Assembly: GCA_041288095.1 (NCBI GenBank)
Contig: JBGGMJ010000134.1
Location: forward strand, 1 to 54,626
DNA from: Myxococcota bacterium
GTDB taxonomy: Bacteria > Myxococcota > XYA12-FULL-58-9 > JALHOP01
Length of the DNA stretch: 54,626 bases
Direction of reading: 5' to 3'
The position numbers were made by a program, and so were the translations under genes. The notes beneath the pieces were generated by a model, which saw nothing but the letters and a program-made list of their open reading frames with translations, was not told the origin of the DNA and did no database searches. How positions within the stretch are numbered: position 1 is the stretch's first letter; every line of letters begins with the position of its first letter. This document shows, one piece after another, positions 12,862-53,231 of this stretch.

Positions 12862-12889
12862 GCAACGGTGCCGCCGCGCGCCTCGAGAA
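12862..12889 (+). promoter_or_regulatory. Variant sigma-28-like promoter
   Basis: GCAA-N16-CTCGAGAA, 8 nt before ATG 12898. Confidence 0.4.
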
Positions 12890-12897
12890 TGACCGCC

Positions 12898-13584
12898 ATG
12901 AGTCTTCAAGTCTCGGCAATCACCTCGCAAGCTGCTTCTCGTCCCGACGCCGGCACCCCCGCGCCAGCGGTCCTCGCCGATGCTCCGTTGCCCGCTGCCG
13001 CGGACGCCGTCGCGGCACCACGGCCGTCGCTGCTACCGCGCGCCAATCCCACCCTAGAGTTGGTTGCGCCGCGGGTCGCCACCGAGACGCCGGCGCCGCG
13101 CTTCCCGCGCAACCTCTGCTACCGCGGTGACTGTGGCGTCGAGATGGAGCGCATCTGGAACGCCTTCAACGCGGCCGGGCCGGTGGATGCCTCGCAGATC
13201 CCCAGTGTCTTCTCGGGCAACATGTTCTGGAAGAGCAGCTCGTACAATCCGAATCACGCCCACTTCGGCGGCGTGTTGCTCGATCGGCAAGCCGGTGGTG
13301 AGCTCACGTTCAACGGCCGCTGGACCTTCTTCGGACCCGGGAATCCGTACACCAATACCACGCTCGAGGAGGCGCGCCGCGAGTGGGCGAACCGTCCGCT
13401 GCCGGTGCAAGACCGCGGCGATCACCTCTATATCGACGCCAACCCGCGGACGAACGACCCGCGTTGGGTGCCGCTCGAATACTGGCTGCGCCAGGATGCG
13501 ACGACCCGCGACATCTACGTGGTCGGCTTCTTCGGCAACGGCCAGTTCGCGGTCGGGCAGCTTCGCGCCAACGCGAATCAGTAG
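12898..13584 (+). CDS. Hypothetical protein: Ala/Pro-rich N-terminus plus aromatic-rich globular domain
   Basis: ORF with GC-biased codon usage; starts MSLQVSAITSQAAS (alternative ATG 12889); no signal peptide. Confidence 0.75.
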   Translation: MSLQVSAITSQAASRPDAGTPAPAVLADAPLPAAADAVAAPRPSLLPRANPTLELVAPRVATETPAPRFPRNLCYRGDCGVEMERIWNAFNAAGPVDASQIPSVFSGNMFWKSSSYNPNHAHFGGVLLDRQAGGELTFNGRWTFFGPGNPYTNTTLEEARREWANRPLPVQDRGDHLYIDANPRTNDPRWVPLEYWLRQDATTRDIYVVGFFGNGQFAVGQLRANANQ

Positions 13585-13587
13585 CGC

Positions 13588-14436
13588 TTACGAGTCGCGG
13601 CGGGCGTCGTCGTAGGCCTTGAGGTGCTTCAAGGCTTCGTCGCGCTGGCCACGTTGCTCGAGCAGGGCCGCCAAGTTGAAGTGGGCGTCGGCGAAACCCT
13701 GATCGTGGGCGAGCGCCGCGCGGTAAGCGGCTTCGGCACCGGCCCAGTCACCGAGGTCGTGGAGGGTCACGGCGAGATTGAAGTGGGCAACCGGGTGCGT
13801 CGGATCGATGCGCACGGCGTTGCGAAAGTACGCGGCGGCGCGCTTGAGATCGCCGCCGTCCGAGCACATGCGGCCGATGTTGATGGTCGCTTCGACGTGC
13901 TCGGGATTGCAGGTGAGGGCGCGCAGATAAGCGTCGTAGGCGCCGGAGGAATCCGCCTCTTCGAGAGTCATGGCCATGTCGAACCAGTGGTCCGCGGCGG
14001 TCATGTCGCTCGGGCCGTCGAAGATCGCGCCCAAGGTGTCGGTGAGCTTCGCGGTGTTGCGTGTCTGGGTGACCTCGGCGGTCTTCATCTCACCGAACGC
14101 GAAGCAGGCCTGACCGCTCACCGGCTCCCAGGCCTGGTGGCCGTCGCTCGCGACCAGGACTCCCGCATCGACGCGGAGTTGCAGCGACGAGAGTGATTGG
14201 CTGCCGAGCTGCCGACGGAGCGCCGCGAGGGCACGCTCGACGCGCGAGGCGGACAGACCTTCGGAGATGAGTCGCGCCGCCGTGCGCAGAACCGCGAGAT
14301 CCTGGAACCCGAATGTGGGTTGATCTGGGTTCTCCGACACCGCCTGGTCCCCGGAGGGCAGGGCGACGCGGGCCACGGTGCGGATGCGCTGCTCCGAGAG
14401 CTTCACCAACCGGGCGGCTTGGCGGGTCGTGAACAT
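13588..14436 (-). CDS. MerR-like HTH plus TPR protein
   Basis: FTTRQAARLVKLSEQRIR...FGFQDLAVLRTAARL (MerR-like); TPRs AHFNLAVTL, ADAHFNLAALL. Alternative GTG 14445. Confidence 0.85.
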   Translation of the reverse strand: MFTTRQAARLVKLSEQRIRTVARVALPSGDQAVSENPDQPTFGFQDLAVLRTAARLISEGLSASRVERALAALRRQLGSQSLSSLQLRVDAGVLVASDGHQAWEPVSGQACFAFGEMKTAEVTQTRNTAKLTDTLGAIFDGPSDMTAADHWFDMAMTLEEADSSGAYDAYLRALTCNPEHVEATINIGRMCSDGGDLKRAAAYFRNAVRIDPTHPVAHFNLAVTLHDLGDWAGAEAAYRAALAHDQGFADAHFNLAALLEQRGQRDEALKHLKAYDDARRDS

Positions 14437-14542
14437 TCGACCCACTCACTATCACCAAGGTCCGACAGCGCCGATACTTTTCTGTGGTAGGATTCAGCCA
14501 TCGATGTCGCGACTCGGACGGCGCCTCGACGAAGACCAGACG

Positions 14543-15508
14543 ATGGCTGAGCCCGCACAAAAACCGCGCATCCTCGTAGTCGACGACGACCCTAACAACC
14601 TGCGTCTGGTCGCCGAGACTCTCGATGGCTTGGGTTATGCCCTCGAGACGGCGACCGACGGCGTGCAGGCCATCGAGCGCGTCCGTGAATCGGCGCCGGA
14701 TCTGCTCATCCTCGACGTCATGATGCCGAAGATGAACGGCCTCGAGGTCTGCCGCATCGTGAAGTCTCTTTCAGCGGACGCGTTCATCCCGATCATCCTC
14801 GTCACCGTGAAAGGCGACGTCGACAGCAAGGTGACCGGACTGAAGCTCGGCGCCGACGACTACCTCGCCAAGCCCTACAACCCCTTGGAGCTGCGCGCGC
14901 GTGTCGCGTCGATGCTCCGCATCAAGGCGCTGCAAGACAAGATCAACACCAAGCGCCGCGAGCTCGAGGCGTTGTCGATGACCGACGACCTCACCGGGCT
15001 GTTCAACCACCGTGCGATGCAGCAGCGCTTGAAAGACGAGTTCATGCGGGCGCAGCGTTACAACGATCCGCTGTCGCTGCTCATGATCGACGTCGATCAC
15101 TTCAAGAAGGTGAACGACCGCTTCGGGCACCTCTTCGGAGACTACGTCTTGGGCGAGCTCGCGCAGGTGCTCACGCGATGCGTGCGCGAAATCGACTTGC
15201 TTGCCCGCTATGGCGGAGAGGAATTCCTCGTCATCCTTCCGCAGACCCACTTCTCGGGGTCACTCGCGGTGGCGGAGCGCATCTGGCGCACCGTGGGCCG
15301 GCACGAGTTCAACGACAACAACGTGCAGCACCCAATCACCGTGTCGATCGGTATCTCGTTCTATCCCAACAAGAACGTCGCAACCGTCGAGCAGCTGGTC
15401 GCTTTCGCGGACCAGGCCCTCTATCAAGCCAAGCGCGAGGGTCGCAACCGCATCTGTCTGCACCAGCACATGAACTATCTCTATCGCCCGGAGCGGGCCA
15501 CCTCGTGA
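14543..15508 (+). CDS. Response regulator diguanylate cyclase (REC-GGDEF)
   Basis: ILVVDDD, LDVMMP, DDYLAKP; DDLTGLFN, DVDHFKKVND, RYGGEEF, I-site REID. Alternative ATG 14504. Confidence 0.95.
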   Translation: MAEPAQKPRILVVDDDPNNLRLVAETLDGLGYALETATDGVQAIERVRESAPDLLILDVMMPKMNGLEVCRIVKSLSADAFIPIILVTVKGDVDSKVTGLKLGADDYLAKPYNPLELRARVASMLRIKALQDKINTKRRELEALSMTDDLTGLFNHRAMQQRLKDEFMRAQRYNDPLSLLMIDVDHFKKVNDRFGHLFGDYVLGELAQVLTRCVREIDLLARYGGEEFLVILPQTHFSGSLAVAERIWRTVGRHEFNDNNVQHPITVSIGISFYPNKNVATVEQLVAFADQALYQAKREGRNRICLHQHMNYLYRPERATS

Positions 15509-16503
15509 GCACGGTTCTCGTGGTCGACGACAGCGAGGCGTTGCGCATCGCGACGCGTCGTATGCTCGAGCAGTCGTCATTGTCGCTGAAGGTCATCGAA
15601 GCCGCGGACGGCGCCGAGGCCCTGCCGCTCGCGCTCTCTGGTCAGGTCTCCATCGTCGTCAGCGACATCGTCATGCCGCGCCTCGACGGCATCCAGCTCT
15701 TGCGCGGCATCCGCGCGCATCGCGACTGGGACAGCTTGCCGGTGATCCTCGTGACCTCGCAGGCCGAGGAGGACACGCGCAACGTCAGCTTCGAAGCCGG
15801 CGCCAACGATTACCTGACGCGGCCGTTCGATTCCGAAGAGCTGCTCGGCCGCATCAAGGTGCAGCTGCGCTTGAAGAGTCTCCACGAGGAGCTCAAGCGT
15901 GCCGATGAGCGGCACCGCCGTTTGGGTACGCACGACGAGCTCACTGGGCTCGCGAACCGCCGGCACCTCTTGGACCTCACGCGGCGTGAGCTGTCACGGG
16001 CGCGTCGCCACAAGCTCGCCATGTCGGTCTGCATCCTCGAGCTCGATGACGTGCGCGCGGTCGAGCAGCGCGTGAGCCACCTCGCGGGCGACGCCATCAT
16101 CAGCGACCTCGCGACCATCCTGACGCGCAACTTGCGCACCGCCGACATTCTGGCGCGCATGGGCCCGCACAAGTTTGGTGTCTTGCTGCCGCATACCGAC
16201 GCGGCGCAGGGCCGGGCCGCGGGTGAGCGTCTGCGGTCGGCGGTCGGCAGCTATACGTTCCCAGGCAGCCTGCGCGCCGAGCTTTCGGTGTCGGTTGGCG
16301 TCGCCACCTACCCGACCGGCGCCCTCGAGACCGTCGACGAGCTGGTCAACGCCGCCGAAGCGAGCCTCGACAAGGCACGCGGCAAGGGTGGGAATCGGGT
16401 CGAGGCGTGGAGCCCGGGCGAGGGCGAAGAGAGCTGGGCCAAAGCCGCGCGCGTGTCCGTTTCAGCGGACGACGAGAATAGCGGCGAGGCCGCCAAGGGT
16501 TAG
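15505..16503 (+). CDS. REC plus degenerate GGDEF protein
   Basis: VLVVDDS, SDIVMP; DELTGLAN; A-site reads RMGPHKF; RTAD I-site kept; GTGA overlap with the upstream gene. Confidence 0.88.
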   Translation: MSTVLVVDDSEALRIATRRMLEQSSLSLKVIEAADGAEALPLALSGQVSIVVSDIVMPRLDGIQLLRGIRAHRDWDSLPVILVTSQAEEDTRNVSFEAGANDYLTRPFDSEELLGRIKVQLRLKSLHEELKRADERHRRLGTHDELTGLANRRHLLDLTRRELSRARRHKLAMSVCILELDDVRAVEQRVSHLAGDAIISDLATILTRNLRTADILARMGPHKFGVLLPHTDAAQGRAAGERLRSAVGSYTFPGSLRAELSVSVGVATYPTGALETVDELVNAAEASLDKARGKGGNRVEAWSPGEGEESWAKAARVSVSADDENSGEAAKG

Positions 16504-21040: not shown

Positions 21041-21439
21041 TTACGCACTGCGCAGGAACGCGCGGATGCGTTGGGCGCCGTCGCCTTCGACGTGCACGAA
21101 CTTCACGCCCATGCCGAGGCCGTCGGAGTTGGGGGCGCTGCTGACGACCTCGCCGCGCGCCACCACCATCTCGCGGTCACCGGGCAACGCGAACTTGAGC
21201 GTCACCTGGGTGCCCATGGGATGGGGAATGGCGCGGTCGAAGAAGACGCCACCAGCCGCGATGTTGCCGCTGCGCCGGAAGTAGATGTCGTCGCCCGAGA
21301 TCTCTTCCATCCAGAGCTCGAGAGGAAAGCGCTGGTCTGCTCTTCGATCGCGTTGGCGCCGGTCGGTACCGCGGCGATCCTGCGAGATCGAAGAGGAGTC
21401 TTTACGACGATCGGCGACTCTGCGGTCGCGACGGGTCAT
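21041..21439 (-). CDS. PilZ-domain protein (myxobacterial TIGR02266-like)
   Basis: RRADQRFP (RxxxR), NIAAGGVF, GEVV, GMGVKF. Confidence 0.88.
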   Translation of the reverse strand: MTRRDRRVADRRKDSSSISQDRRGTDRRQRDRRADQRFPLELWMEEISGDDIYFRRSGNIAAGGVFFDRAIPHPMGTQVTLKFALPGDREMVVARGEVVSSAPNSDGLGMGVKFVHVEGDGAQRIRAFLRSA

Positions 21440-30783: not shown

Positions 30784-30847
30784 TTGACTACATACACATA
30801 CCCCCGGCGAGCTGGCTTATCTCCCGGGGGTTTATGGATGTGCTTAT

Positions 30848-32810: not shown

Positions 32811-32828
32811 GAATCGCCGAGCCCGCGC

Positions 32829-32900
32829 CCCGATACTGGCAACGTGTCAGGGGGTGACGCCGATACGTTGGCCAAGTGATCGCAATCACTTCGTCGATAC
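32829..32900 (+). promoter_or_regulatory. Three tandem sigma-28-like -10 boxes
   Basis: CCCGATAC 32829-32836; GCAA(32839)-N16-GCCGATAC 32859-32866; GTCGATAC 32893-32900, 12 nt before ATG 32913. Confidence 0.65.
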
Positions 32901-32912
32901 AGGGCCAGAGGA

Positions 32913-33488
32913 ATGGACCGCGTACCCCTAGCTGATCGCATCGCTACCGTGGCGCCTCTGTCGCCTCGTGAGACCTCGCCGCTCGCGGGTCGCGCAAGCA
33001 AGCTCGGAGCCGAGGAGCTCATCGTTCTGGCGGGTGAAAAGGAGGGCGTCGAGGCGGTGCAAGCGGCGGCCAAGTCCGCGCAGGAGCGCGTCGCCAAGGT
33101 TGGCGAGCCCGTGATCGCCGATGCCAAGCTGGCGACCGGCCAGGTCGGAGCGATGGCCACCATCCTTCGTGTCGGCCACTTCTACGACCAGGCGACCATC
33201 AACGACGTCCGCGGCTTCCACGGGAGCGAGCACGCCCGGGTCGACGAGGCGGGTCGCGGCGCCTTGGCGCGTGCCGCGAGGATCTTCGTGCAAGCCACGC
33301 GCACCTTTCTGCGCATCGTTGGCGGCACCTTCTTTCCCGGCGTCGTGCGCGCCGGGACCGACGCGGCAATGGCCCAGCGTCCAGCCTATGAGACGGTCGA
33401 AGCGGGCATCAACGCCGCGACCGGCGATCTCGCGAAATCTGTCGAACAGGTCCCCAAGGCGCCGACCGTGCAAGGCGGGGGCAATTGA
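32913..33488 (+). CDS. Hypothetical helical protein (operon gene 1 of 3)
   Basis: 191-aa Ala-rich ORF, GAGGA RBS, no signal peptide; stop overlaps the next start. Confidence 0.7.
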   Translation: MDRVPLADRIATVAPLSPRETSPLAGRASKLGAEELIVLAGEKEGVEAVQAAAKSAQERVAKVGEPVIADAKLATGQVGAMATILRVGHFYDQATINDVRGFHGSEHARVDEAGRGALARAARIFVQATRTFLRIVGGTFFPGVVRAGTDAAMAQRPAYETVEAGINAATGDLAKSVEQVPKAPTVQGGGN

Positions 33489-34537
33489 TGTTGGCTGTGA
33501 CCCACGAAGTGCTGCCGGTGCAGCCCCCCAAGGTGAGCTCGCAGGCCGATGCCGTGGCGAGCGGACAGCGCATCGCCGCCGACGCGCAGCGCAAGGCCGC
33601 GAAGATCTTGAGCCACGTGGTCACTGTCGCCGAGCAGCAGACCGCGAAAGTCCAACGCATCGATCGCCTGTGGGTACCGAAGAGCCAGCGCAACACGCCG
33701 GTGCGCGAGCCGGTGGCCGTACCTGGACCGCGGCGCTTGCCAACCTATGCCGACCTGCGGGCCAAGCTACGCGACTTGAACGATCATGGTTGGCGGGCCT
33801 CGTACAGCGAAGCCCGCGTCAACTGCGCCCTCGGCAAGCTCGACTCCACGGTGAAACGCGCCCAAGCGGAAGTCGAAGAGGTGATCGCGCAGGCGTCGCG
33901 TGAGCTGCTCGCCTTGTCGTGTCTCTACGGCGACGACTCCCCGATGTGGCAAGGCGTTTACACCGCCATCCTGGTGAACGGGCCGCGCGGCTTGCAGTTC
34001 GATCTCACCTGCGAAGCGGCGCGCAAGATGGTCAAGGAGCGCGGCGCCGACCAGCCGACCGGCAGCTATCGCGGTGACGACGGCAAAGAGCACGCCGTCC
34101 CCAACGTGCCGCGCGCCATGACCCAAAGTCTGAACGCGGCCGTCGATGCGAGCTCTTCGATAGCGGACAGCATGCGCAAGCTCACGAACCGGGCGCATCG
34201 CATCGCCTTCTTGTCGTGGATCGGTCACGGCATTGCCTTCTGGCGCGACCGCAACGCCGAGCCGACCCGGGCGCTGGCGTGCTACGCCAAGGCCGAGAAG
34301 CAGGCCTTCGCGTCGGTGAACGCGGCGCTCGCGGGAGCGACGCGGGCCGTCGCCGCCTGGCAAGGCTTGTACCCAGCGGCCAGCGACTTCTTCATTGGCG
34401 CGCTCGACGCCGTGCACCCCAACAAGACCATGTACGAAAGCTTCAAGGAGAGCGCCAAGGCGCCGAAGGCGCTGGTTCGCAATCGCGGTGACCGCGCGCT
34501 CGCCGATGCGAGTGCCCCCGGAGAGGTCGTCGGGTGA
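33488..34537 (+). CDS. Hypothetical helical protein (operon gene 2 of 3)
   Basis: About 350 aa; TGATG coupling; hydrophobic patch IAFLSWIGHGIAFW. Confidence 0.72.
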   Translation: MLAVTHEVLPVQPPKVSSQADAVASGQRIAADAQRKAAKILSHVVTVAEQQTAKVQRIDRLWVPKSQRNTPVREPVAVPGPRRLPTYADLRAKLRDLNDHGWRASYSEARVNCALGKLDSTVKRAQAEVEEVIAQASRELLALSCLYGDDSPMWQGVYTAILVNGPRGLQFDLTCEAARKMVKERGADQPTGSYRGDDGKEHAVPNVPRAMTQSLNAAVDASSSIADSMRKLTNRAHRIAFLSWIGHGIAFWRDRNAEPTRALACYAKAEKQAFASVNAALAGATRAVAAWQGLYPAASDFFIGALDAVHPNKTMYESFKESAKAPKALVRNRGDRALADASAPGEVVG

Positions 34538-34944
34538 TGGTGAGCTCGGTAAAGAAACGCACTCCAGGGGAAGCCGCCGCGGCGGTCGCCCGCGAGCAGG
34601 GCACGGCGCACCGAGGGGTCGCCAAGCGCGCCCGTGCCAAGGCCGGCACCGTCGAGCAAGAGTACGAGCAGCGCGTCGAGCGCGCCGTGCGCCGGGTGAA
34701 GAAGCCCGAGACCGTTGGTGGATTGAAGGCCGCGTTCTTGAAGATCCGCGAGCTGGTGCGCGGTGACGCTAGCGCCGCCGATGCCGCGCTCGAAGGCGTG
34801 CGCGTCGCCATCGATTGCGGCAAGCGCCTGGGCGCCCTCGACGGCGAGGCCGCTCACGCGGACACTTCCGCTCAGAAGCTCGAGGGCTTCGCGGACAAGC
34901 TCGAGAAGCAAGAGCCGCTGCCGCCGCACGTCGGCCGCCGCTAG
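34537..34944 (+). CDS. Hypothetical helical protein (operon gene 3 of 3)
   Basis: About 135 aa; TGATG coupling. Confidence 0.65.
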   Translation: MVSSVKKRTPGEAAAAVAREQGTAHRGVAKRARAKAGTVEQEYEQRVERAVRRVKKPETVGGLKAAFLKIRELVRGDASAADAALEGVRVAIDCGKRLGALDGEAAHADTSAQKLEGFADKLEKQEPLPPHVGRR

Positions 34945-37067
34945 TCGGCCGAGAGCGGGCCGCGCCGCCGGCGCAGCCAAAACATGCCCGCGACGAGCCC
35001 GAGCCAGGAGCCGTGGACCGCGCCGCATCCCATCGTTGGCTGTTCGAGCACCGCCATGGTGACGCTCGCTTCGGCGCTGTTGCCGGCGGTGTCCTGGGCG
35101 GTGGCGCGCACGCGGATGGTGGCGCTGTCCGGCAGATCGTCGAGCGCGAGAACCTCACCATGTCGCACCGTCCCCGAGCGGATGATCGTATCGGGGACCG
35201 CTTGTGAGCTGACGATGCCGACCTGATAGGCGATGCGCTCCGCCAAAGCGGTGTCGTCCTCCGCCTCGATGCGCAAGCGCAAGCCGTGCGTCCCGACGAT
35301 GCCGCGGGGCTGCTCGGCGAAGCGGATGGTGGGTGGGAGAGCATCGACGTCGACGTTCACGTCGAAGCCGACGGGGTCGAGGTTCCCCATGAGATCGACG
35401 GCGGCGAGGTGAATGGTGTGCTGGCCGTCCGCGAGCCCTTCGACGAGCACTTGCGCTCCGGCCCGCAGATCGCTGTCGGCGGGACTGCCGTCGACCGTCA
35501 CCTGATGCCGCATGAGCTCGCCGATGGTGGTGTTGTCCGTGGACGCGACGGTGATGGCGACGTCCGGCGAGCATGGGCAGACCGGCGCCGCGCCGATCGC
35601 GGTCGTCGGCGGCACGGCGTCGCTCGCGTCGATGTCGACGAGGCCGATCTCGGCGATGACCGCGTCGTTGGTGGTACGGAGCGCGCCGATGGTGATGGCG
35701 ACGTACGCCGCGTCGAAGAGGCCGGTGATGATCGGCAGGTCGCCGATCTGCTTGGTGACGAACGGCATGACGGCGTTGCGCACGAAGCGGTCGACTCCAT
35801 CCTGGGTGAAGCCGAGGCTCGAGCTGCCGAGGGTGATCTGCAGCGGCGTGACGCTGGCTTCCGTCGTCGCCAGCACCAGCTCGCGGGTCGCGGCACGCAT
35901 GCGTGTGTCCGCGGCAATGGACAGGTTGCCGAGGAAGTCCGCGGTGTAGTCGCGGTCGTTGGGGACGGTGACGGCGATATGCCCCGACAAGCGCGACAGC
36001 TCGACGGTGGCGCTACCGGTCTCGCTGGCCACGAAGGCCACGCGCGGCGGCGCCAGCGCGTTCAGGGTGACGTGGGTGGTCGTGCCTTTGACGAGGGTCG
36101 CGAGCAGGTCGTCGATGGCGGGTGCCGCGCTCGGTACCTCGAGGCACAACCAGCCGGCGCGCCAAGCGCTCTCCACCACGTTTTGGGCGAAGCGGCTCGA
36201 GATGGCGACGCTGGTCGCTTGCGGCATGACGATCGACGGAGGCGGAGACGTCGGTGCCACGCTCGAGTCGAGACCGGCGGTGCAGTTCGCTATGACGGGC
36301 GCGTCGGTCTTGACGCCGAAGGTCATGGTGATGCCGGCGGCGTCGATGGCCACGCCCTCGGGCTGCGCCGTGACGGCGATGCCCTTGATGGTCGTCGGCT
36401 TGATGAGATCGGAGGTGAGGGCAGCGACCTGCGTTTCGATCAACGCCGGGATGAAGGCTTCGATCTCCGCGGCGGCGTAGTTGATGAGATCGTCGCGCAG
36501 CCATTCTTGGCTGGCGTCGAAGGCGCTGGCGTAAGCGGCGCATCCCGTGAGCTCGATGGTCACGTTCGCGTGATCGACCGCGAAGGTGAAGGCATCGACG
36601 ACCAACGTTGGTACACATTGATTGACCGCGATGCTGGCGCGCGCGTGCGCGGTCACCCCATGTGCGACGACGTGTGCGTCGCAGCTGTCGTCGGGTAGGG
36701 CGCAGATCTCGAGGTCCATGTCGCCCGTAGCGTCGATGTCGCCATGGATGTCGATGTCGATGCCGCCATCGACGAGCGTCACCGCGTAGGTCGTGTTGGC
36801 GAGGTGAACGGTGCCGCGCTTGAAGTGGATGATGGTGTCGTCGAACCAGAGCCCGCATTCGCCGAGCACGACGTCGAACTGGCCGAGGCTCGCTTGTTGC
36901 GGCACCAACGCTCCGAGCGGCCGCAAGACCTGCTCGATGCTCTCTTTCTGAATACGCGCGACGACGGCCTGCGACACCAGACCCGGGTCACAGACGGCTT
37001 TCGCCACGCTTGCGTGGAGCACGACCGTCGCTGCAAGCGTCGCGACGGCACACGTCCGGCTCATCAT
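34941..37067 (-). CDS. Exported protein with putative BPI/LBP (TULIP)-like region, Ig-like domains and MYXO-CTERM-like anchor
   Basis: Signal peptide; AVVARIQKESIEQV and VAISSRFAQNVVESAWRAG resemble the two BPI halves; C-terminal GCGAVHGSWLGLVAGMFWLRRRR. Confidence 0.65.
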   Translation of the reverse strand: MMSRTCAVATLAATVVLHASVAKAVCDPGLVSQAVVARIQKESIEQVLRPLGALVPQQASLGQFDVVLGECGLWFDDTIIHFKRGTVHLANTTYAVTLVDGGIDIDIHGDIDATGDMDLEICALPDDSCDAHVVAHGVTAHARASIAVNQCVPTLVVDAFTFAVDHANVTIELTGCAAYASAFDASQEWLRDDLINYAAAEIEAFIPALIETQVAALTSDLIKPTTIKGIAVTAQPEGVAIDAAGITMTFGVKTDAPVIANCTAGLDSSVAPTSPPPSIVMPQATSVAISSRFAQNVVESAWRAGWLCLEVPSAAPAIDDLLATLVKGTTTHVTLNALAPPRVAFVASETGSATVELSRLSGHIAVTVPNDRDYTADFLGNLSIAADTRMRAATRELVLATTEASVTPLQITLGSSSLGFTQDGVDRFVRNAVMPFVTKQIGDLPIITGLFDAAYVAITIGALRTTNDAVIAEIGLVDIDASDAVPPTTAIGAAPVCPCSPDVAITVASTDNTTIGELMRHQVTVDGSPADSDLRAGAQVLVEGLADGQHTIHLAAVDLMGNLDPVGFDVNVDVDALPPTIRFAEQPRGIVGTHGLRLRIEAEDDTALAERIAYQVGIVSSQAVPDTIIRSGTVRHGEVLALDDLPDSATIRVRATAQDTAGNSAEASVTMAVLEQPTMGCGAVHGSWLGLVAGMFWLRRRRGPLSAD

Positions 37068-37078
37068 GTTCACCGTTG

Positions 37079-37105
37079 TTATCGGCGAACGACGACCGGG
37101 GTTGC
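37079..37105 (-). promoter_or_regulatory. Sigma-28-like promoter
   Basis: GCAA-N15-GCCGATAA (consensus FliA -10), 11 nt before ATG 37067. Confidence 0.75.
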
Positions 37106-37155
37106 GCGATGCTTTGACGCGCCGCGCAATTGCCGCCGGCCGCAATGGCGTCGCT

Positions 37156-37635
37156 TTAGCCCTTGGCCGCTGCCTTCAAGCCGGCAATCTCGATCTTGCC
37201 CATTTTCATCATGGCGTCGGTCACGCGCTTCGCCTGGGCCTTGTCGGGCCCCCCCGCCAGCTCCTCGAGGAGCCGCGGTACGATCTGCCAGCTCAGCCCG
37301 TATTTGTCCTTGAGCCAACCGCAGGGCTCGTGGCGACCGCCCTTGCCCAAGGCGTCCCAGAGGCGGTCGATCTCCTCCTGCGTCTCGCAGTTCACCTGGA
37401 TCGAGAACGCGTGGTTGAAGTCGTCGAGCGGACCAGCTTCGAGCGCCCGATAGGGAATCCCGGCGAGTGTGAATTCGATGGTCTTCACCGATCCAGGGGG
37501 GCCGCTGGGACTCTCCGAGTGGAAGGTCGTGACCTTGCCCATCTCCGAGCCTGGAATGAGGGAAGTGTAGAGCTTCACGGCCTCTTCGGCGTTCTTGGCG
37601 AACCACAGAAACTGCGTGACGGTTATCTTCGACAT
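37156..37635 (-). CDS. VOC/PhnB-like (3-demethylubiquinone-9 3-methyltransferase family) protein
   Basis: ITVTQFLWF..NAEEA, CETQEEIDRLWDAL, CGWLKDKYGLSWQIVP; AGGAG RBS. Confidence 0.93.
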   Translation of the reverse strand: MSKITVTQFLWFAKNAEEAVKLYTSLIPGSEMGKVTTFHSESPSGPPGSVKTIEFTLAGIPYRALEAGPLDDFNHAFSIQVNCETQEEIDRLWDALGKGGRHEPCGWLKDKYGLSWQIVPRLLEELAGGPDKAQAKRVTDAMMKMGKIEIAGLKAAAKG

Positions 37636-41727: not shown

Positions 41728-43230
41728 TTAGTCTTTTTTGGCTTCGACCTGCTGGATGCCCTGCCACAGGGGCAACGTCCCATCCTTCGTGATGATGGCA
41801 TACGCGTAGGACTGGTCGAAGTTGATCGCGATCGGTGGCGGCGGCTCGCTGTGCATCGCCGACTCCATCATCGCCATCTCGACGACCTGCGCCGCCTTGG
41901 TCTGGCGCGGGCCGAGCTCGATGACTGCTTTCAATCGCGCTGCGTTCGGCGCCGTCTCGCCCGAGGCGATCATGCCGCTGAACTTCAGGGGCGCGAGCTT
42001 GCGCAGCACCTCGAGGAAGTCCTCCGGCTTGAACTCGGTCTTGAACGCGCCGAGCTGGAACTTGTCCTTGGCGTCGAAGTCACGCGCTTCGGCGTTCGCG
42101 AAGGCGGCCGCGAGCTGGGCGCTGCCGACGTCGAGGAGGAGCTGCTTCGGGGTGAGGTTACCCTTGGGCATCATGGCGACGAAGCTCGCGCCTTGCTCAT
42201 CGCCGTAGGGGAACATGACCGCGGTGAAGCGCGCATTGTCGATCACCTTGAGGCCGCCCTGGGCAAGCTTCATGCGCCCGTTGGCTGCATCCGAGGCCTC
42301 CTTCAGTCGCGGGATGATCTCGTGCTGCGCACCCTTGAGGTAGGGGACCTCGAGGTACTTCGCGGCGTCCTTGTTCCATTCGGCGGCCGCGAGCTTCTCG
42401 ACGGACGGCTCTTCGTCGCCCTTGCGGTGGTACCGCTTGGCGTTCGCGAGCAGCGACGGACCGAAGTCCTTCTCCTTCTCGAGACGGGTCTTGTAGCCCG
42501 GGTCTTCGATGAGCTCCTTCGCGTGAACGAAGGGATGGGTGAAGGTGCCCTCGAAGCCGATGGCCGAGATCAGCGACCAGATGTACTCCGGCAGCGCGTC
42601 CTTATCGACGAAGTCGTTGATCATGCCGTTGGTGGCATCGGAGATCGTCTTGTTCATGTCGGCGGCCGCGTCTTCGAAGTCCTTGTCGGTCTTGAGCGGC
42701 TTGTCGATGACCTTGTCGCCGGCCGTGGCCTTCTTGAAGCTGTCGGTGAAACCACCGGTCTTGATCTCGTTCGAGAAGGCGATGTTGGCGAACTTCACCG
42801 CGATGCCCTTGTCGAGACTACCGAGGCGAGCCGCGAGCGCTTCGGCCCCGGCGCTGACCTGCTCGAGGCTCAAGCCGTCGAGACCGAGGGTCTTCAAGTA
42901 GTTGTTGCGCTCGGCGCCTTCCTTGGTGCCCTTGGCGGCGAACATGAGCAAGGCGGCGACGCCCGGCGCGGAGAAGGTCGCGCTCTGGCCGTCGACGACC
43001 ATCTCCTGCGTCAGGATCTGCGCGATACGGCCGATGCAACCGGCAATCTTGCTCTCGACGGTTGCCTTGGCGCCGCCGGCGCCCTCGACGCGCGAGAAGG
43101 CCGAAGCGCCGTCGACCGCCGCCGATTGGTTGCTGATGCTGGAGCTCGGACCAGAACCTGAGCCGGTCTCGGGTGCGCGAGCGATGTTGCGACCAAGAAT
43201 GCGGCCAATGTGTGAAATCGAATCAGTCAT
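41728..43230 (-). CDS. Divergent serpin with Ser/Gly-rich N-terminal extension
   Basis: FSAPGVAALLMFAAKGT, ISDATNGMI, LISAIGFEGTFTHPF, MFPYG, FVAMMP, C-terminal INFDQSYAYAI..LPLWQG. Confidence 0.75.
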   Translation of the reverse strand: MTDSISHIGRILGRNIARAPETGSGSGPSSSISNQSAAVDGASAFSRVEGAGGAKATVESKIAGCIGRIAQILTQEMVVDGQSATFSAPGVAALLMFAAKGTKEGAERNNYLKTLGLDGLSLEQVSAGAEALAARLGSLDKGIAVKFANIAFSNEIKTGGFTDSFKKATAGDKVIDKPLKTDKDFEDAAADMNKTISDATNGMINDFVDKDALPEYIWSLISAIGFEGTFTHPFVHAKELIEDPGYKTRLEKEKDFGPSLLANAKRYHRKGDEEPSVEKLAAAEWNKDAAKYLEVPYLKGAQHEIIPRLKEASDAANGRMKLAQGGLKVIDNARFTAVMFPYGDEQGASFVAMMPKGNLTPKQLLLDVGSAQLAAAFANAEARDFDAKDKFQLGAFKTEFKPEDFLEVLRKLAPLKFSGMIASGETAPNAARLKAVIELGPRQTKAAQVVEMAMMESAMHSEPPPPIAINFDQSYAYAIITKDGTLPLWQGIQQVEAKKD

Positions 43231-43274: not shown

Positions 43275-43301
43275 GTATCGGCGCGCTGATTGCGCTGTTG
43301 C
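43275..43301 (-). promoter_or_regulatory. Sigma-28-like promoter
   Basis: GCAA-N15-GCCGATAC, 44 nt before the serpin ATG. Confidence 0.72.
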
Positions 43302-44016: not shown

Positions 44017-44751
44017 TCAGCCGGCGAGCTCTACTGGAAGCACGTGCGCGGCGATGCCGGCGGCGTCGCGAATGGGGCCACCGGCGGCCGCCACGACGAC
44101 GCTGGTCGGGGCGTGGCTCCCGAGCGTTCGTTGGATGCCGGCGATCTCTCGCGCAGCGTCGGTGACGAACGCGCCCACGCGAAAGCGCGCCAGCAGGCCA
44201 GCGACCTTGTCGCTCTTGAACGGCACCGTGAGCTGACCGTTTTGCTTGCACAGCAGCAGCGTGAACGGAATCTCGTGGTCGTTGAGGAACGTTCTCGTCG
44301 CGGGACCGAGCTCGGTGTTGCGGCCGGTCAGGATGATGTTTTGGATGCCGAGGCGCGCGGCTCGTTGCATGCGCTCGACAATCGCTCGGATGGGAACGTC
44401 GTCGCCGAGGCGATCCGCCTGCCAGAAGACGCGGTCCCAGACGATCTCGAAGCGCCGCTGGTCGAGTCCGAAGTCGCGGATCACGTCGTCGGTGTGCGGC
44501 GCGGTGTCGCGGAGCTGCGCCAGGGTGGCGGTTCGGCCATAGGCATGGAGGGCGGCGAGCATACGCTTGCGCGTCTCCACGATGGTGCCGTCGATGTCCC
44601 AGACGATGGCCCGAGGACCGCGCGCGGCGCCTAGCTCGGTGATGATGCGGTCGAGCACCGCGCCGCCGTCGGTCGGCAGGCCGGCTTGCAGCGGAGCGAC
44701 GTAGCGCGCCTCGCCAGTCGACCCCAAAGCCAGTCCGCGCGGCTGCATCAC
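44017..44751 (-). CDS. HAD-superfamily phosphatase-like protein
   Basis: IVWDIDGTIV (motif I), ILTGR (motif II), FK, FVTD; no signal peptide. Confidence 0.8.
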   Translation of the reverse strand: MMQPRGLALGSTGEARYVAPLQAGLPTDGGAVLDRIITELGAARGPRAIVWDIDGTIVETRKRMLAALHAYGRTATLAQLRDTAPHTDDVIRDFGLDQRRFEIVWDRVFWQADRLGDDVPIRAIVERMQRAARLGIQNIILTGRNTELGPATRTFLNDHEIPFTLLLCKQNGQLTVPFKSDKVAGLLARFRVGAFVTDAAREIAGIQRTLGSHAPTSVVVAAAGGPIRDAAGIAAHVLPVELAG

Positions 44752-44756
44752 ATCGA

Positions 44757-44784
44757 GTATCGGCGAGGAGACGTCGGGAGGTGC
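44757..44784 (-). promoter_or_regulatory. Sigma-28-like promoter
   Basis: GCAC-N16-GCCGATAC, 5-8 nt before GTG 44751 / ATG 44748. Confidence 0.6.
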
Positions 44785-49309: not shown

Positions 49310-50698
49310 TCAGCGCTGGCCGCGGACGTACGCTACCAGGCCGTCCGCGAGCGACTTCGCGTAGCTGTCGAGGAAACCCCCGGGGACGCCGTAGGCAGTT
49401 CCGCGATCGCGGAACACCAGGGGGAAGATGCCCGGATGATTGTAAGTCGCGCCTTCGAGATACACGCTGAGGGGCTCGCCGGGCACCGCGTGTGGCAAGC
49501 GCAGGCTGCGGGCGAAGACGCCGGTGTCCTTGCCGACCGGCAACAAGAACTTGGGGTCGACCGCGCCCGTTTTGCCCGGCACTTGCGGGACCGCGCCGGT
49601 CGTCGCGCAGATGCTCTTCACCAGCGTCGCGGCGAGGTCCGCTGAAGCGTTCCAGCTGGTGCTCGCGCATTGCTGGACGAAGCGGGCTTGCCCCATCTTC
49701 GACTCGATGGAGTCGACCGAGAAGCAGCCGGGCACGTAGATTTTCACTTCGTGACGCGCCTCGGCGTTTACCTGATGAACCTCGGCGTCGAAGTGCATGA
49801 TGATGCTGATGTCGGGATGGTGACTGCCCATGCGTTCGGCGCGGCGCTCGAGGTCGAGCGCGCTCAGGAACGTACCGCGGTTGCCGGCGCGCTTGGCGAG
49901 CTCGGGATCGGCGTCGAGCAGCGCGTTCACGTAGGCGCGGTTGTTGGTGCGCGTGACGCGTCCCTGGCGGGTGATGACCACCTCGGCTCCGAGGCTTGCG
50001 AGGCGGCGCGCCAGGTTGCGCGCCGAGATGGCGTTCAGATCGCCCTCGGTGAGACCGTCCGCTGGAACGGTCTCGGGGTTCGTCGGCGGCGGGCCGTAGG
50101 TGACCCACTTGCCCTCGCGCATGTCTTCGATGTCGCCGAAATGGCCGGGGTCGAGCGCGACGCGAAGCCCGAGGAGCGGTTTGTGTGGCGGGGCGGTGCG
50201 AGCGATCTCGGCGATGCGGGCCACCGGCGAGTGACGGCTTGGTGCACGGGGCTCGTCGGCGAGCCGCACCTTGCTGATCGGCTCGCCCGCCTTGCCGGCA
50301 ATCAGCAAGTAGTCGCGACCGTCGATGCGGTCGAACGACGCCCGGGAGCGCGCTTCTTGCGAGAGCAAGAACGGCAGGACGCCTTCGACCTGGGCTCGGC
50401 TCACCGGGATCTTGGCGGGTAGGGGGGCCTTGGTGCTGTCGAGCTGAACGACACGCGGGATGAGGCGGTGGATATCACGCTCGCTCATCGCCTCGGCGCC
50501 GTCGGGAACGGTCATTCCGGGCATGGCGACACAGGCCATCAACTTTTGCGCCGCGGGGCTCATGCGAGCGCCCTCGCGCGCTGCCGTGAGATACCGCAGC
50601 GACTGCATGACCGGGCCCGCTGGCGAGGCCGGGCGCGTGTCGGTGCTCGGAGCTGATGCATGGGCCGTGAACTGGTCCGCTGGCGAGACTTTGCGCAT
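49310..50698 (-). CDS. N-acetylmuramoyl-L-alanine amidase (Amidase_3) with long N-terminal extension and no signal peptide
   Basis: VALDPGH, EGDLN, LGAEVVITR, LERRAE, IMHFD, YLEG: all Zn ligands and the catalytic Glu present. Confidence 0.85.
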   Translation of the reverse strand: MRKVSPADQFTAHASAPSTDTRPASPAGPVMQSLRYLTAAREGARMSPAAQKLMACVAMPGMTVPDGAEAMSERDIHRLIPRVVQLDSTKAPLPAKIPVSRAQVEGVLPFLLSQEARSRASFDRIDGRDYLLIAGKAGEPISKVRLADEPRAPSRHSPVARIAEIARTAPPHKPLLGLRVALDPGHFGDIEDMREGKWVTYGPPPTNPETVPADGLTEGDLNAISARNLARRLASLGAEVVITRQGRVTRTNNRAYVNALLDADPELAKRAGNRGTFLSALDLERRAERMGSHHPDISIIMHFDAEVHQVNAEARHEVKIYVPGCFSVDSIESKMGQARFVQQCASTSWNASADLAATLVKSICATTGAVPQVPGKTGAVDPKFLLPVGKDTGVFARSLRLPHAVPGEPLSVYLEGATYNHPGIFPLVFRDRGTAYGVPGGFLDSYAKSLADGLVAYVRGQR

Positions 50699-50708: not shown

Positions 50709-50735
50709 TTATCGACCCGGCACCGCCCGGGTTGC
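50709..50735 (-). promoter_or_regulatory. Sigma-28-like promoter embedded in the 3' end of the upstream gene
   Basis: GCAA-N15-GTCGATAA, 10 nt before the amidase ATG 50698. Confidence 0.68.
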
Positions 50736-51623
50736 GGCGATGAGCGCGCCGACCTCGCGGCTGACGGCATCGACGACGGTGGGGTGGCCAGGAACGCCGA
50801 TGTGCCAAGCGGGCACGCGCGTCTGCAGATCGGCCCCATCGATGGTGCCGAAGACGGGTAGACGCAGCGTGCGTGGGAAGTTGAAAACGCGCGCGGTCGA
50901 GGCCCAGCGTTGCAGCGGTGTCTGTGGGGTCGACACCGCGTCGATGGTGACCATCAGGTCGAGGCGCGTGTTGGTCGCGGCGAGGGTGCGGGCGAGCGAG
51001 CTCGCGGAGGCGCCGCCCATGCTGTGGCCCGCCACCACCAGCCGGCGCGCCCGTGACTGCTGCTGCCAGATCCGTGCGCACGTCGCTGGCAAGCCGTTCG
51101 GATCACCGCTCTCGGCCTCGTGGGGGAACACCAGGAACTCCATGCGATCCCCGTGGCGCTGCAACAGCGGTCGCACCAACCCGTGCAAGACGTAGCCGCT
51201 GGCCATCGCGCCTTGGGGTGGGTCACGTCGGGCGCCCGCTGCCCATGCGTAGGTTTCCGCGGTGCCGCTCTCGTCGTAGGAAATCAGGCCCTCGAAACCC
51301 ATCACCAGAGTGTTCACGCCTCTCGCCGCCGCATCGTCCGAAAACGCCTGGCAGGCGGCGCGCGACCGCTCTGGTGTCCAGTCGGTACCGTCGAAGTGGG
51401 GCTTGGGCGGGCGATCGCGGCGCGTCGCCGGCAGTGTTGCGACCCGAGCGGTCGAGCGCGCTGGCTCGGCAATCTGGGGGCGGGGATTGCCGGCAACCCT
51501 ATAGAGACCGGCGGTGAGGGGCACCGTGGTGCTCGGTGCCGCCTCTATATCGTCCCGATTTTGGGCGGAGAATCGGGTGCTGAGGACGCCCCGAGGCGGT
51601 TCGATCGGCGGGATACCCGACAT
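50709..51623 (-). CDS. Alpha/beta hydrolase with disordered N-terminus
   Basis: VVAGHSMGG, MVTIDAV, C-terminal WH; no signal peptide. Confidence 0.8.
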   Translation of the reverse strand: MSGIPPIEPPRGVLSTRFSAQNRDDIEAAPSTTVPLTAGLYRVAGNPRPQIAEPARSTARVATLPATRRDRPPKPHFDGTDWTPERSRAACQAFSDDAAARGVNTLVMGFEGLISYDESGTAETYAWAAGARRDPPQGAMASGYVLHGLVRPLLQRHGDRMEFLVFPHEAESGDPNGLPATCARIWQQQSRARRLVVAGHSMGGASASSLARTLAATNTRLDLMVTIDAVSTPQTPLQRWASTARVFNFPRTLRLPVFGTIDGADLQTRVPAWHIGVPGHPTVVDAVSREVGALIAATRAVPGR

Positions 51624-51726
51624 CGACAGTCATACACGGTGGAGGAGCTTGTGGGTGCTGGTGGGACGAAAAACGTCATTAACCCGCAGAGCTAGGGTCG
51701 TGTACTTCTCTTGGGACGGTTCCACC

Positions 51727-53181
51727 ATGACCACCACGACGACGACGAACAATCAGCGGGTCTCTCGTTACGGGAGCCCCGAGCTCAACGACAACATCAA
51801 CCGCGTCATCACCATGCTTCAGACCGGCATCGGCACTGAAGACGAGGGGACGCGCTACAACGACCTGAAGCAGCTCGAGCGCCAGGTCATGGCGGACGTG
51901 AAGTCCGGCAAGTTGCCGCCCGAGAAGGCGTTCCAGATCGCCGCCGAGGTTCGTCGCCAGCTCACCACCGAGGCGCTGCAGCGCTTCGACGAGTACTTCA
52001 ACGAGAAGAACGCTCGCGGCAACCTGAACACGCTGATCGACGAGGCAGCCGACGGCCGGGCGCAAGCGCAGAGCTCGGCCCGCATGGGTCGTCAGATGCA
52101 GACGGCGATGCTCGCCCTGCGCAACTTCGACGGTCCGCCGAGCGAGCTGCTCGACGCCCGCCAGCATCTCGACGAGCTCGAGGCGCGCGGCGGACTCGAT
52201 CCGATCGGCGCCGCGGCGCTTCGCCAGAGCATCGACGCGCGTCTCGCCGAGATGGTCGGCGAAGGTCAGCTCGGCATCGCGCCGCCAACGCCGGTGTGGA
52301 ACGCCTTCATCGACTCGCAGGCCGCGCGCGACTCGGCGCGCAACATGTCGCAGCGCGCCGTCGCGGTGCAGCCACGCGACGTCTTGCTGCACCCCGAGAA
52401 GTTCGAGCCGACGCTGCGGGCGACGCTACGCACTGGGAATATCGCGCTCGGCGAGCTCGGTCGCTTGTCCGCTGAAGCGGGCGAAGCGCAGCGCCGCGGT
52501 ACGTTGTCGAACGCGGGTCGCCGCGCCATCGATCGCGCTATCGATTCAGGCGTGAAGAACAGCGCCGGCGTCATCGACCCCGCTGCTTCGGTGCCCCGCA
52601 ATACGGCGCTCGCGGCGGCTCGCCCCGGCGGCGTCGTGCAACGCACCCTGGGTGCGACGTTGCGACCAGAAGCGCTCGAGGACGGCAGCGGCGGCGTGAC
52701 CGAATCGGTGTCGCGTGAGGCGCGCGCGCGCAACGTGGCGCCGGTGACCGTGTCGGCCGCGCAAGCGAGCGTCAGCATCGCGGCGCGGGCCATCGACAGC
52801 GGTTCGCGTCCGACGGCGGCGCGCTCGACCAACGCGGAGGTCGAGAACGCGCGACGCAACGCCTTCGACTTTCACGATCCAGTCATCGCGCAACAGTTCG
52901 TGCATGCGCTCACCGGCCGTACCAAGGTGACCGCCGGCCAACGCGCGGCGCTCGTCGACTCGGTCTTGCAGAACGGCGCTATGTCGCTGGGTGAGCTACG
53001 CGCCTTCCAGATCGCTCTCGATGACGCCTCGCATCTCGGCCTCGTGACCCGCGAGGAGTCGCAACAAGCGTGGCGCACGGTCGCCTCGGAAGCCGCGCGG
53101 CATGTTGGCGGCTCGACGATCGCGGCACGGGCGCAAGGCGAAGAGATCGCTCGGCACGGCGTGCAACGCTTCCGCGGCTGA
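51727..53181 (+). CDS. Hypothetical helical protein starting MTTTTTTNNQ
   Basis: About 484-aa ORF with GC-biased codons; no signal peptide. Confidence 0.75.
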   Translation: MTTTTTTNNQRVSRYGSPELNDNINRVITMLQTGIGTEDEGTRYNDLKQLERQVMADVKSGKLPPEKAFQIAAEVRRQLTTEALQRFDEYFNEKNARGNLNTLIDEAADGRAQAQSSARMGRQMQTAMLALRNFDGPPSELLDARQHLDELEARGGLDPIGAAALRQSIDARLAEMVGEGQLGIAPPTPVWNAFIDSQAARDSARNMSQRAVAVQPRDVLLHPEKFEPTLRATLRTGNIALGELGRLSAEAGEAQRRGTLSNAGRRAIDRAIDSGVKNSAGVIDPAASVPRNTALAAARPGGVVQRTLGATLRPEALEDGSGGVTESVSREARARNVAPVTVSAAQASVSIAARAIDSGSRPTAARSTNAEVENARRNAFDFHDPVIAQQFVHALTGRTKVTAGQRAALVDSVLQNGAMSLGELRAFQIALDDASHLGLVTREESQQAWRTVASEAARHVGGSTIAARAQGEEIARHGVQRFRG

Positions 53182-53204
53182 GAGCTCCGCGCGGACATTT
53201 CGGC

Positions 53205-53231
53205 GCAACTCGTCGCCATCAGCCTCGATAA
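53205..53231 (+). promoter_or_regulatory. Sigma-28-like promoter
   Basis: GCAA-N15-CTCGATAA upstream of ATG 53300. Confidence 0.58.

Follow-up and report, generated by a model that had tools for sequence, protein, structure and literature searches.

The whole 54,626-nt contig C134 of an uncultured Myxococcota bacterium (source genome G000), referred to below as the window, carries copies of a bipartite motif, GCAA-N15/16-GCCGATA(A/C), which a first-pass annotation had read as the promoter of a dispersed regulon under a sigma-28 (FliA)-like factor. Sequence statistics show cGCAAC-N14/15-gcCGATAa to be a genuine promoter class of this genome, with a fixed orientation, placed upstream of about 395 genes or operons. 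Its reader is likely to be sigma A, a sigma-28 paralogue of a T3SS (type III secretion system) locus that has a re-tuned −35 specificity and is conserved across much of Myxococcota, and sigma A likely controls some 400 mostly uncharacterized genes in this lineage. The findings point to a large gene programme coupled to secretion. The earlier inference was essentially right and can be sharpened. The reading as a whole, which includes a speculative export of an anti-sigma factor, is held here with reasonably good confidence.

The source genome comprises 5.85 Mb in 212 contigs (66% G+C) and is 90% complete. Genes were called with a home-made caller based on codon usage, yielding 5030 genes and 93% coding sequence; start codons and distances to starts are approximate because this caller is crude. 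A two-block matrix with a free spacer was trained on 3392 upstream regions of the whole genome by expectation maximization (EM) of the zero-or-one-site (ZOOPS) type. This procedure replaced a naive iterative refinement, which had drifted from 802 to 5832 hits. In the notation used, GCAAC-N14 equals GCAA-N15 and GCAAC-N15 equals GCAA-N16. Relatives (labelled G001, G002 and so on) belonged to a sample of 151 genomes of the phylum and were scored by the exact pattern GCAACN{15,16}CCGATA against a reversed-pattern control, not by the full matrix. A genome was counted, by hand, as motif-enriched if it held at least 15 strict hits and at least four times as many as the control.

In a spacing scan of the whole genome, GCAA-N15-NNCGATA was found 152 times and the N16 form 86 times, and the 23 other spacings between 5 and 29 gave 12–37 occurrences each. 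CGATA itself occurs 6978 times on the two strands, and the same 152 and 86 cases are those with GCAA 15 or 16 nt before the octamer NNCGATAN. The N15 sites were intergenic in 129 of 152 cases (85%) and the N16 sites in 52 of 86, compared with 23 of 186 at seven control spacings and, for CGATA overall, 884 of 6978. Ninety-six N15 and 52 N16 sites lay 1–100 nt upstream of a start on the same strand. Site profiles were conserved at cGCAAC and gcCGATA[A/C], with an uninformative spacer. The first-pass expectation that the motif is commoner upstream of starts than in the background was borne out by the spacing peak, the intergenic and orientation bias and the control spacings.

EM gave about 529 expected sites (posterior above 0.5 in 491 and above 0.9 in 401), with GCAA-N15 accounting for 64% and N16 for 33% of spacers. 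The −10 matrix reads g c C G A T A a (C 0.96, G 0.98, A 1.00, T 0.77, A 0.80) and contains the GCCGATAA element of a sigma-28-type promoter; the −35 block is cGCAAC and not the TAAA of such promoters. Scanning of both strands at thresholds of 16, 18 and 20 bits yielded 402, 252 and 141 hits, against 67 and 86, 16 and 13, and 4 and 0 at two control spacings. At 14 bits or more there were 687 hits, of which 432 were intergenic and 396 lay within 300 nt upstream of a same-strand gene, corresponding to 395 genes. Called starts lay a median of 41 nt from the CGATA box. Among genome hits of 14–17 bits, a promoter-like context was found for only 126 of 364.

The sigma-28 (FliA) consensus is TAAA-N15-GCCGATAA. 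Promoters of this canonical form were sought in the source genome and not found: TAAA stands 15 nt before NNCGATA at 6 sites, against 0–6 at other spacings, which is no excess, and the [TC]AAA-type sites listed are mostly far from gene starts. A sigma-70-like class, TTGAC-N17/18-TAnnnT, was detected separately (spacing peak of 13 and 21 against about 2). The motif is not a housekeeping promoter, because this TTGAC class is separate and only one of its 35 regions overlaps the GCAAC regulon; the dominance of family-less genes among the targets likewise rules that interpretation out.

A fixed distance to genes is also known for some activator sites, and the motif could accordingly be bound by a transcription factor or some other DNA-binding protein instead of being a promoter. 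However, the half-sites are unlike, the orientation is strict, the spacing is rigid at 15/16, the spacer is variable and the median distance is 41 nt, all of which is −35/−10 geometry, and one half-site is identical to the −10 of a known sigma factor. We give the binding-site interpretation very little weight.

All nine sites reported for the window were recovered with coordinates, letters and strand exactly as claimed (Table 1 lists those retained). Six score 17.0–22.4 bits, the site at 12862–12889 is marginal (14.3 bits), and the two that had been called weaker (30817–30843, 6.4 bits; 6795–6822, 7.9 bits) are indistinguishable from background on the genome matrix. These last three, being at background level, are in line with a chance resemblance in a genome of 66% G+C. 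For the set as a whole, chance is contradicted by the spacing histogram and the control spacings, by the bias towards intergenic, correctly oriented positions and by conservation in relatives; its probability is close to nil, and on these sequence comparisons it is already refuted for the six strong sites. A look-up of RNA sequencing runs for window positions 32700–37300 found none holding this stretch.

The strict pattern occurs 117 times in the source genome (4 in the control), 91–143 times in three genomes of the same genus (controls 2–3) and 8–60 times in most genomes of the order. Within the phylum sample it is also enriched in families f12 and f13 (e.g. 53 against 1, 43 against 4 and 45 against 4), and counts in family f17 are at background (about 5 against 3). 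Upstream of the orthologues of the serpin-like window gene in G001 and G002, GCAAC and GCCGATACCCG have been kept with a diverged spacer, and before the orthologue of the 693-aa window gene in G002 both boxes are identical with four spacer changes.

Candidate readers were sought among the sigma factors of the source genome, in which 32 matches to Sigma70_r4 (region 4) were found. Two genes have FliA_WhiG as their best NCBIfam match, namely sigma A (C92:35188-36072, 294 aa, 163.7 bits) and paralogue B (C127:21744-22571, 275 aa, 166.1 bits), and the sigma-28-family factor that had been predicted is present in this sense, both scores lying under the cut-off of 189.6. In sigma A, FliA_WhiG is ahead of SigB/F/G (87 bits), and regions 2, 3 and 4 of a group 3 sigma factor are present. 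Its nearest relatives of solved structure are FliA and WhiG, and its top PDB matches are FliA 9wsm (E 6.4e-27), chains of 6pfv and 6pfj, Aquifex sigma-28 1rp3 and E. coli FliA 6pmi, with residues 70–290 aligned. A third sigma candidate, on C31, carries QRKLFFKLR, a box that we take to be RpoH-type.

The block RI[RK]GAI.D.LR of regions 2.4–3.0 is common to sigma A, to B and to C, a canonical FliA of related genomes, which fits a common −10. Region 4.2 differs. All 20 sigma A orthologues in the alignment (identities down to 43%) have G[LQ]SKSW[TA]SR[LK]H, whereas B and C have V-T-[DE]-S-R-[VA]-C-Q-L, as in FliA/WhiG of the PDB (canonical FliA, ESRVSQ). The canonical helix [ST][DE]SR[VA][SC]Q[LI] is therefore a property of B and C and not of sigma A. 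The changed helix positions of sigma A (E to K, R to W, Q to R) presumably include base-contacting ones, as we infer from sigma-70/−35 structures. With a different −35 recognition helix, sigma A would prefer GCAAC to TAAA. The shifted −35 (GCAAC) proposed in the first-pass annotation has its counterpart in this altered helix, SKSW[TA]SR against the [DE]SR[VA][SC]Q of PDB FliA/WhiG and of both paralogues.

Sigma A orthologues are 63–80% identical across the order and 50–69% in f12/f13. They were found in 29 of 33 motif-enriched genomes and in 61 of 118 non-enriched ones, on which counts sigma A is near-necessary but not sufficient for a large regulon. The idea of a lineage-specific sigma factor did not hold, with orthologues in 90 of the 151 sampled genomes; it is the size of the regulon that is lineage-specific. 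In G010, G013 and G015 sigma A is the sole FliA-like factor, and the motif counts are 19 against 2, 20 against 1 and 42 against 3. The enriched genomes in which sigma A was not found are G114 and G148 (70–75% complete), G094, and G005 (motif 60 against 1), where a contig edge intervenes: the orthologue of the TPR gene that neighbours sigma A lies 670 nt from the contig end and points outward.

Flagellins, a second FHIPEP gene beside flhG and the 241-aa canonical FliA (C) were found in G001-G003, G005 and G011. The flagellar cluster of these relatives holds two flagellins, rod genes and flhA-flhG-fliA (G001:C2, about 514.9–528.2 kb; G002:C2; G005:C48). The flhA-flhG-fliA arrangement belongs to C, and sigma A has no flagellar linkage. 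The flagellin promoter of G001 is TAAA-N15-GGCGATGA, and a TAAA-N15-GCCGATA site is divergent from flhA in G001 and G002. Since the flagellar promoters of the relatives use TAAA, canonical FliA would read a different −35 and the GCAAC class would belong to another factor. The large non-flagellar regulon that had been postulated agrees with the roughly 395 genes found here; profile searches of the 90%-complete source assembly gave one FHIPEP gene, with no second FHIPEP, flagellin or rod-protein domain found. As the relatives carry the flagellar cluster and the source genome shows none, it is unassembled, missing from the bin or lost in the species. Flagella are not a classical myxobacterial trait.

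The two other sigma-28 paralogues, B or the canonical FliA C, could read the motif alone or together with sigma A. The distribution of B counts in favour of this and against sigma A as reader: besides the source genome, B is present at 59–92% identity only in G001-G003 and G005, where most sites occur (60–143), and is found more distantly in G006 and G012. The best family match of B is also FliA_WhiG, at 166 bits, and the region 2.4/3.0 block for a common −10 is shared by all three paralogues. Yet B and C carry the canonical helix [DE]SR[VA]CQL of PDB FliA/WhiG, and flagellar promoters in G001 and G002 use TAAA. Neither B nor C was found in G010, G013 and G015, and the motif is kept there; G024 has a C-type factor, and its motif count equals the control (1 against 1). 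The source genome matches its relatives in site count, though searches of it for a C-type gene, a flagellin and rod genes found none. Upstream of B there is no site that reaches 12 bits. Reading by B or C, alone or beside sigma A, is on this evidence improbable. More generally, the regions directly before the six large or group 3 sigma genes, A and B included, hold no site of at least 12 bits. Paralogue B has the canonical −35 helix, yet TAAA-type promoters were not seen in the source genome.

The motif could instead be a promoter of the extracytoplasmic function (ECF) type, read by one of about two dozen ECF-like factors, such as that of the operon C126:17223-18726, in which the second of two genes encodes an ECF-type sigma factor. 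The ECF promoter consensus has AAC in the −35 and CGT in the −10, about 16–17 nt apart. The architecture GCAAC-N16-CGATA resembles this, with AAC present and a fitting spacing, the head of the C126 operon has a 17.6-bit site (C126:17132), and the 32 Sigma70_r4 matches supply many candidates; the first two of these points also count against sigma A. On the other side, the −10 extends to the eight-base sigma-28 consensus gcCGATAa and is CGATA, not CGT. Among about 26 small sigma genes a single one carries a site, with a poor −10 (CCGAGAT). The site before the sigma A module recurs in 18 of 33 loci as well as in G119, and it would be unusual for an ECF factor to have some 400 promoters maintained across an order. 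An ECF reader is thus quite unlikely. With sigma A as the reader, the C126 operon could represent a sigma cascade downstream of it.

Sigma A is preceded in the source genome by genes for a 111-aa protein, a 185-aa protein, a 138-aa TPR (chaperone-like) protein and a 159-aa protein, in this order. Synteny of this module is retained for the TPR gene in 34 of 39 loci, for the 185-aa gene in 27 and for the 159-aa gene in 15. A site of at least 17 bits lies on the same strand 1.2–2.3 kb upstream of sigma A in 18 of the 33 loci with enough flank, orthologues of 48–62% identity among them, and about one such locus is expected by chance from the genome-wide hit density. The module site of the source genome is C92:38061 (18.6 bits). 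That the motif precedes the module suggests positive autoregulation of sigma A.

T3SS genes were found close to this module. On C92 the genes sctJ, sctL, sctN and sctO and a FliK/SctP-like gene are 11 kb from sigma A, with sctU on C41 and sctV on C31; the search in the source genome covered these genes. Sites precede the head of the sctJ operon (C92:24294, 17.3 bits), sctV (17.6 bits, at 382 nt) and the gene that comes after the pair of sctU and a neighbouring TPR gene (20.6 bits). The interval C92:24.4-35.2 kb, which separates sigma A from the sctI/sctJ operon, holds an operon of resistance-nodulation-division (RND) efflux type (OEP, AcrB-type, HlyD-type) and a 488-aa gene.

The complete 9 Mb genome G119, from a family of large genomes, has a sigma A orthologue of 46% identity. 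Its locus begins with genes for 91 aa, 189 aa, TPR, 131 aa and sigma A, followed by a directly abutting sctI-like gene and sctJ, and continues with FliG-like, sctL, N, O, P-like, Q, fliO, R, S, T, U, TPR genes, sctV and sctD, all on one strand except sctD. All core genes of such a T3SS (sctJ, L, N, Q, R, S, T, U and V), which are expected to lie together or in a small number of loci, are present in G119. A 23.5-bit GCAAC-N14-GCCGATAA stands before the 189-aa gene, and three further genes of the locus have upstream sites of their own (22.8, 18.3 and 18.9 bits); the site-bearing genes include a DUF1521 gene (L148:5740-6912, 18.3 bits) and a TPR gene. In family f17, sigma A and sctV are 14.5–22.6 kb apart on one contig in 11 genomes. 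The f17 regulon appears to be small and centred on the T3SS locus, and to have grown to hundreds of members in the present genus.

The first gene of 185–189 aa (G119 L147:7710-8279; source genome C92:37386-37943) has a faint needle-family match at its C-terminus (E 0.02). Together with the TPR gene after it, the arrangement resembles a needle–chaperone pair; the myxobacterial T3SS* is described as lacking needle genes, and likewise a secretin and translocon genes. The locus content of G119 and of the source genome fits the early-branching 'Myxo' non-flagellar T3SS described in the main text of Abby and Rocha, 2012 (PMC3459982). That main text contains neither 'sigma' nor 'FliA', and in PMC11804543 'Sigma' occurs as a supplier's name only. 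For Myxococcota and the T3SS of this phylum, the literature search, which covered main texts, returned no description of a sigma-28-like factor, promoter or regulon.

In the 159-aa protein, whose gene lies directly upstream of sigma A, the N-terminal third is of low complexity and the C-terminal part is helical and conserved. Neither it nor the 131-aa protein of G119 gave a Pfam hit even at E 10, and a profile of the 159-aa alignment matched among PDB sequences only a designed helical repeat protein (E 0.003). These Pfam and PDB profile searches thus showed no FlgM likeness of the two proteins. A complex of sigma A(66-294) with the 159-aa protein was modelled, with ipSAE values of 0.48, 0.85 and 0.79 (median 0.79) and a best control of 0.00; the runs share at least 44% of contacts and the partner pLDDT is at least 57. 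In the calibration of such models, 116 of 157 solved complexes reached the mark, as did 2 of 215 mismatched pairs, counts that hold only roughly here because our own alignments were used. Modelled contacts involve residues 154–202, 226–233 and 285–293 of sigma A and 69–157 of the 159-aa protein. Some of the score may come from likeness to sigma-28/FlgM complexes, which have already been solved. The model supports, and does not show, binding of the 159-aa protein to sigma A; a function as anti-sigma factor is possible and more speculative, and its export by the T3SS would be pure analogy.

Among the top 60 target genes by score, 50 have no Pfam family at E <=1e-5. Among the ten that do have one are a serpin, a subtilase, a thermolysin-type protease, a Ser/Thr kinase, a glutathione peroxidase and hydrolases. 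For comparison, 24 of the 34 site-less genes of the window have a family at the same threshold and 10 have none. The regulon is not one expanded family, because only 55 of 395 regulon proteins have a paralogue inside it and the largest family has 4 members; paralogy is a minor explanation at most. The 693-aa window gene belongs to a family of four paralogues, and the motif lies upstream of them all (window 34941–37022, C148:16507-18618, C160:24059-25828 and C79:35085-37217).

By heuristic criteria, signal-peptide-like N-termini are found in 12% of regulon proteins against 28% of others, and lipoprotein-like ones in 3% against 9%. In proteins with neither signal, residues 2–25 are richer in S/T/P/Q/N (31.2% against 23.7%, Mann-Whitney p = 7e-34) and poorer in Leu, other hydrophobic and acidic residues, and the remainder of the protein shows no difference. 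Polar N-termini of this kind would fit type III secretion signals, which they do not prove. DUF1521, the self-cleaving domain found in NopE-type T3SS effectors of rhizobia, was tried as a marker of T3SS substrates and set aside, both DUF1521 genes of the source genome having no site.

The proposed mechanism is as follows. Sigma A would keep the −10 specificity of sigma-28 (GCCGATAA) and read GCAAC through its re-tuned −35 helix, driving its own module and the T3SS genes. More speculatively, the 159-aa protein would hold sigma A as an anti-sigma factor and be exported by the T3SS, on the FlgM model, so freeing sigma A, and many regulon products that have neither signal peptide nor family would be T3SS substrates. 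The fullest version, in which export on, for example, prey contact frees sigma A to boost its own operon and to turn on both the secretion genes and, in this lineage, about 350 family-less proteins with polar N-termini and no signal peptide as T3SS substrates, is regarded as doubtful; if true, it would give a free-living or predatory myxobacterium an effector repertoire of Legionella-like size. The M. xanthus T3SS* is required for prey lysis (section 7 of PMC10849154). A predation-stage role of the regulon, which the first-pass annotation had suggested, is plausible by analogy with that system only.

Several observations weigh against the sigma A reading. The related genomes are non-independent samples. 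The match of sigma A is below the TIGR02479 FliA_WhiG cut-off (163.7 against 189.6), the gene also occurs in the 61 of 118 non-enriched genomes, and no orthologue was found in the enriched G094. At 15 of the 33 module loci there is no match of at least 17 bits at the expected place. No site stands directly before sigma A, and autoregulation requires read-through of three gaps of 113–175 nt. The 159-aa protein matches no FlgM or other family. The polar N-termini may stem in part from mis-called starts, and the two DUF1521 genes of the source genome lack a site, unlike the DUF1521 gene of the G119 T3SS locus.

Table 1. Supported and marginal motif sites of the window and the genes downstream of them.
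Positions	Strand	Feature	Details
12862..12889	+	Marginal site GCAAC-N15-CTCGAGAA	14.3 bits; abuts called start of 12889-13584
32839..32866	+	Site GCAAC-N15-GCCGATAC	17.0 bits; 48 nt from start of string 32913-34944
32913..34944	+	Three tightly packed regulon genes	191, 349 and 135 aa; none with a Pfam family
34941..37022	-	Regulon gene	693 aa; no Pfam family (called 'BPI-like' in the first-pass annotation)
37079..37105	-	Site GCAAC-N14-GCCGATAA	22.4 bits; intergenic; 58 nt from called start of 34941-37022
41728..43230	-	Serpin-like regulon gene	500 aa; Pfam Serpin, E 3.9e-18
43275..43301	-	Site GCAAC-N14-GCCGATAC	21.9 bits; 46 nt from start of 41728-43230
44017..44748	-	Regulon gene, faint HAD/PNKP-phosphatase match	Pfam HAD_PNKP, E 3.3e-05, below cut-off
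44757..44784	-	Site GCACC-N15-GCCGATAC, weaker −35	17.4 bits (−35 5.8, −10 12.6); 10 nt from called start
49310..50563	-	Amidase-like regulon gene	Pfam Amidase_3, E 1e-05, 26.1 bits against cut-off of 27 (weak)
50709..50735	-	Site GCAAC-N14-GTCGATAA	20.9 bits; 147 nt from called start of 49310-50563
53205..53231	+	Site GCAAC-N14-CTCGATAA	21.3 bits; downstream open reading frame 53300-54553 uncertain

The open reading frame 53300–54553 has a low coding score (22.3), competing reading frames and no Pfam family. At the site 50709–50735, the −10 box GTCGATAA contributes its TAA as stop codon to the called upstream gene 50709–51524, which has a weak Lipase_3 match. An additional 17.5-bit match at 41512–41539 (minus strand) lies inside the gene of a major facilitator superfamily (MFS) transporter (40263–41594), on the opposite strand; it is probably due to chance and could be an antisense promoter. 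Two adjoining genes have no supported motif site, one (30848–31273) for a 141-aa protein of the Host_attach / bacterial eRF1-like family 12 (E 2.6e-42) and the other (31494–32810) for a leishmanolysin-like protease with Big_1 domains. Two adjacent response-regulator/GGDEF genes (14504–16503), near a PilZ gene (21041–21310) and a DUF4388 gene, form a cyclic di-GMP signalling neighbourhood that is unrelated to the motif.

If the sigma A reading is true, a paralogue with the same −10 and another −35 would show a re-tuning that avoids cross-talk after duplication. The motif would provide a functional grouping for about 400 otherwise unannotatable genes. For the poorly understood T3SS* there would be a candidate for its regulator, together with a promoter motif and a set of possible substrates; the literature searched contained none of these. 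As the complete genome G119 holds the orthologue, the conserved helix and a site of 23.5 bits, the idea may be testable in cultured myxobacteria.

Sigma-28 is the textbook sigma factor tied to the flagellum and controlled by export of an inhibitor through it; in E. coli and Salmonella, FlgM, the anti-sigma factor of FliA, is exported by the flagellar T3SS. The system described here is like FliA/FlgM in belonging to the same sigma family by best match, in having the same −10 GCCGATAA and adjacent type III export genes, and in a small neighbour protein that is predicted to bind sigma A. It is unlike FliA/FlgM in its −35 (GCAAC, not TAAA), its helix (SKSWxSR, not ESRVSQ) and its non-flagellar secretion machine, in having about 400 targets that are mostly uncharacterized and not flagellar, and in a putative anti-sigma factor with no detectable FlgM similarity. 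The non-flagellar T3SS locus represents the branch closest to the flagellum, and TAAA promoters coexist with sigma A in relatives. The sigma A reading, if true, would suggest that regulatory logic was co-opted together with the export apparatus as the injectisome lineage arose.

Sigma-28 acts outside flagella in Chlamydia, and FliA-type promoters drive attack-phase genes of Bdellovibrio. To our knowledge, the factors of these two organisms and WhiG have kept a TAAA-type −35 and are each the only sigma-28 of their genome. WhiG, with RsiG, is described as a non-flagellar sigma-28-family protein in Streptomyces in PMC7005675 and PMC13595943. The present system is like these three in the redeployment of a sigma-28-type factor to a non-flagellar programme with a conserved −10. 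Unlike them, sigma A coexists in relatives with a canonical FliA and has a diverged −35 specificity.

The locus content of G119 and of the source genome is like that of the Myxo T3SS and the M. xanthus T3SS*, and for the Myxo T3SS no sigma factor, promoter or regulon is described in the literature searched. ECF promoters differ from the present class, whose −10 is CGATA(A) after GC, the sigma-28 form, and whose candidate reader has group 3 regions 2, 3 and 4. In Bordetella, the injectisome exports BtrA, an inhibitor of BtrS, the sigma factor that drives T3SS genes, and BtrS is an ECF factor. The logic proposed here would be the same as that of BtrS/BtrA, with sigma A in the sigma-28 family and BtrS in the ECF family, and with export of the inhibitor suggested here by analogy.

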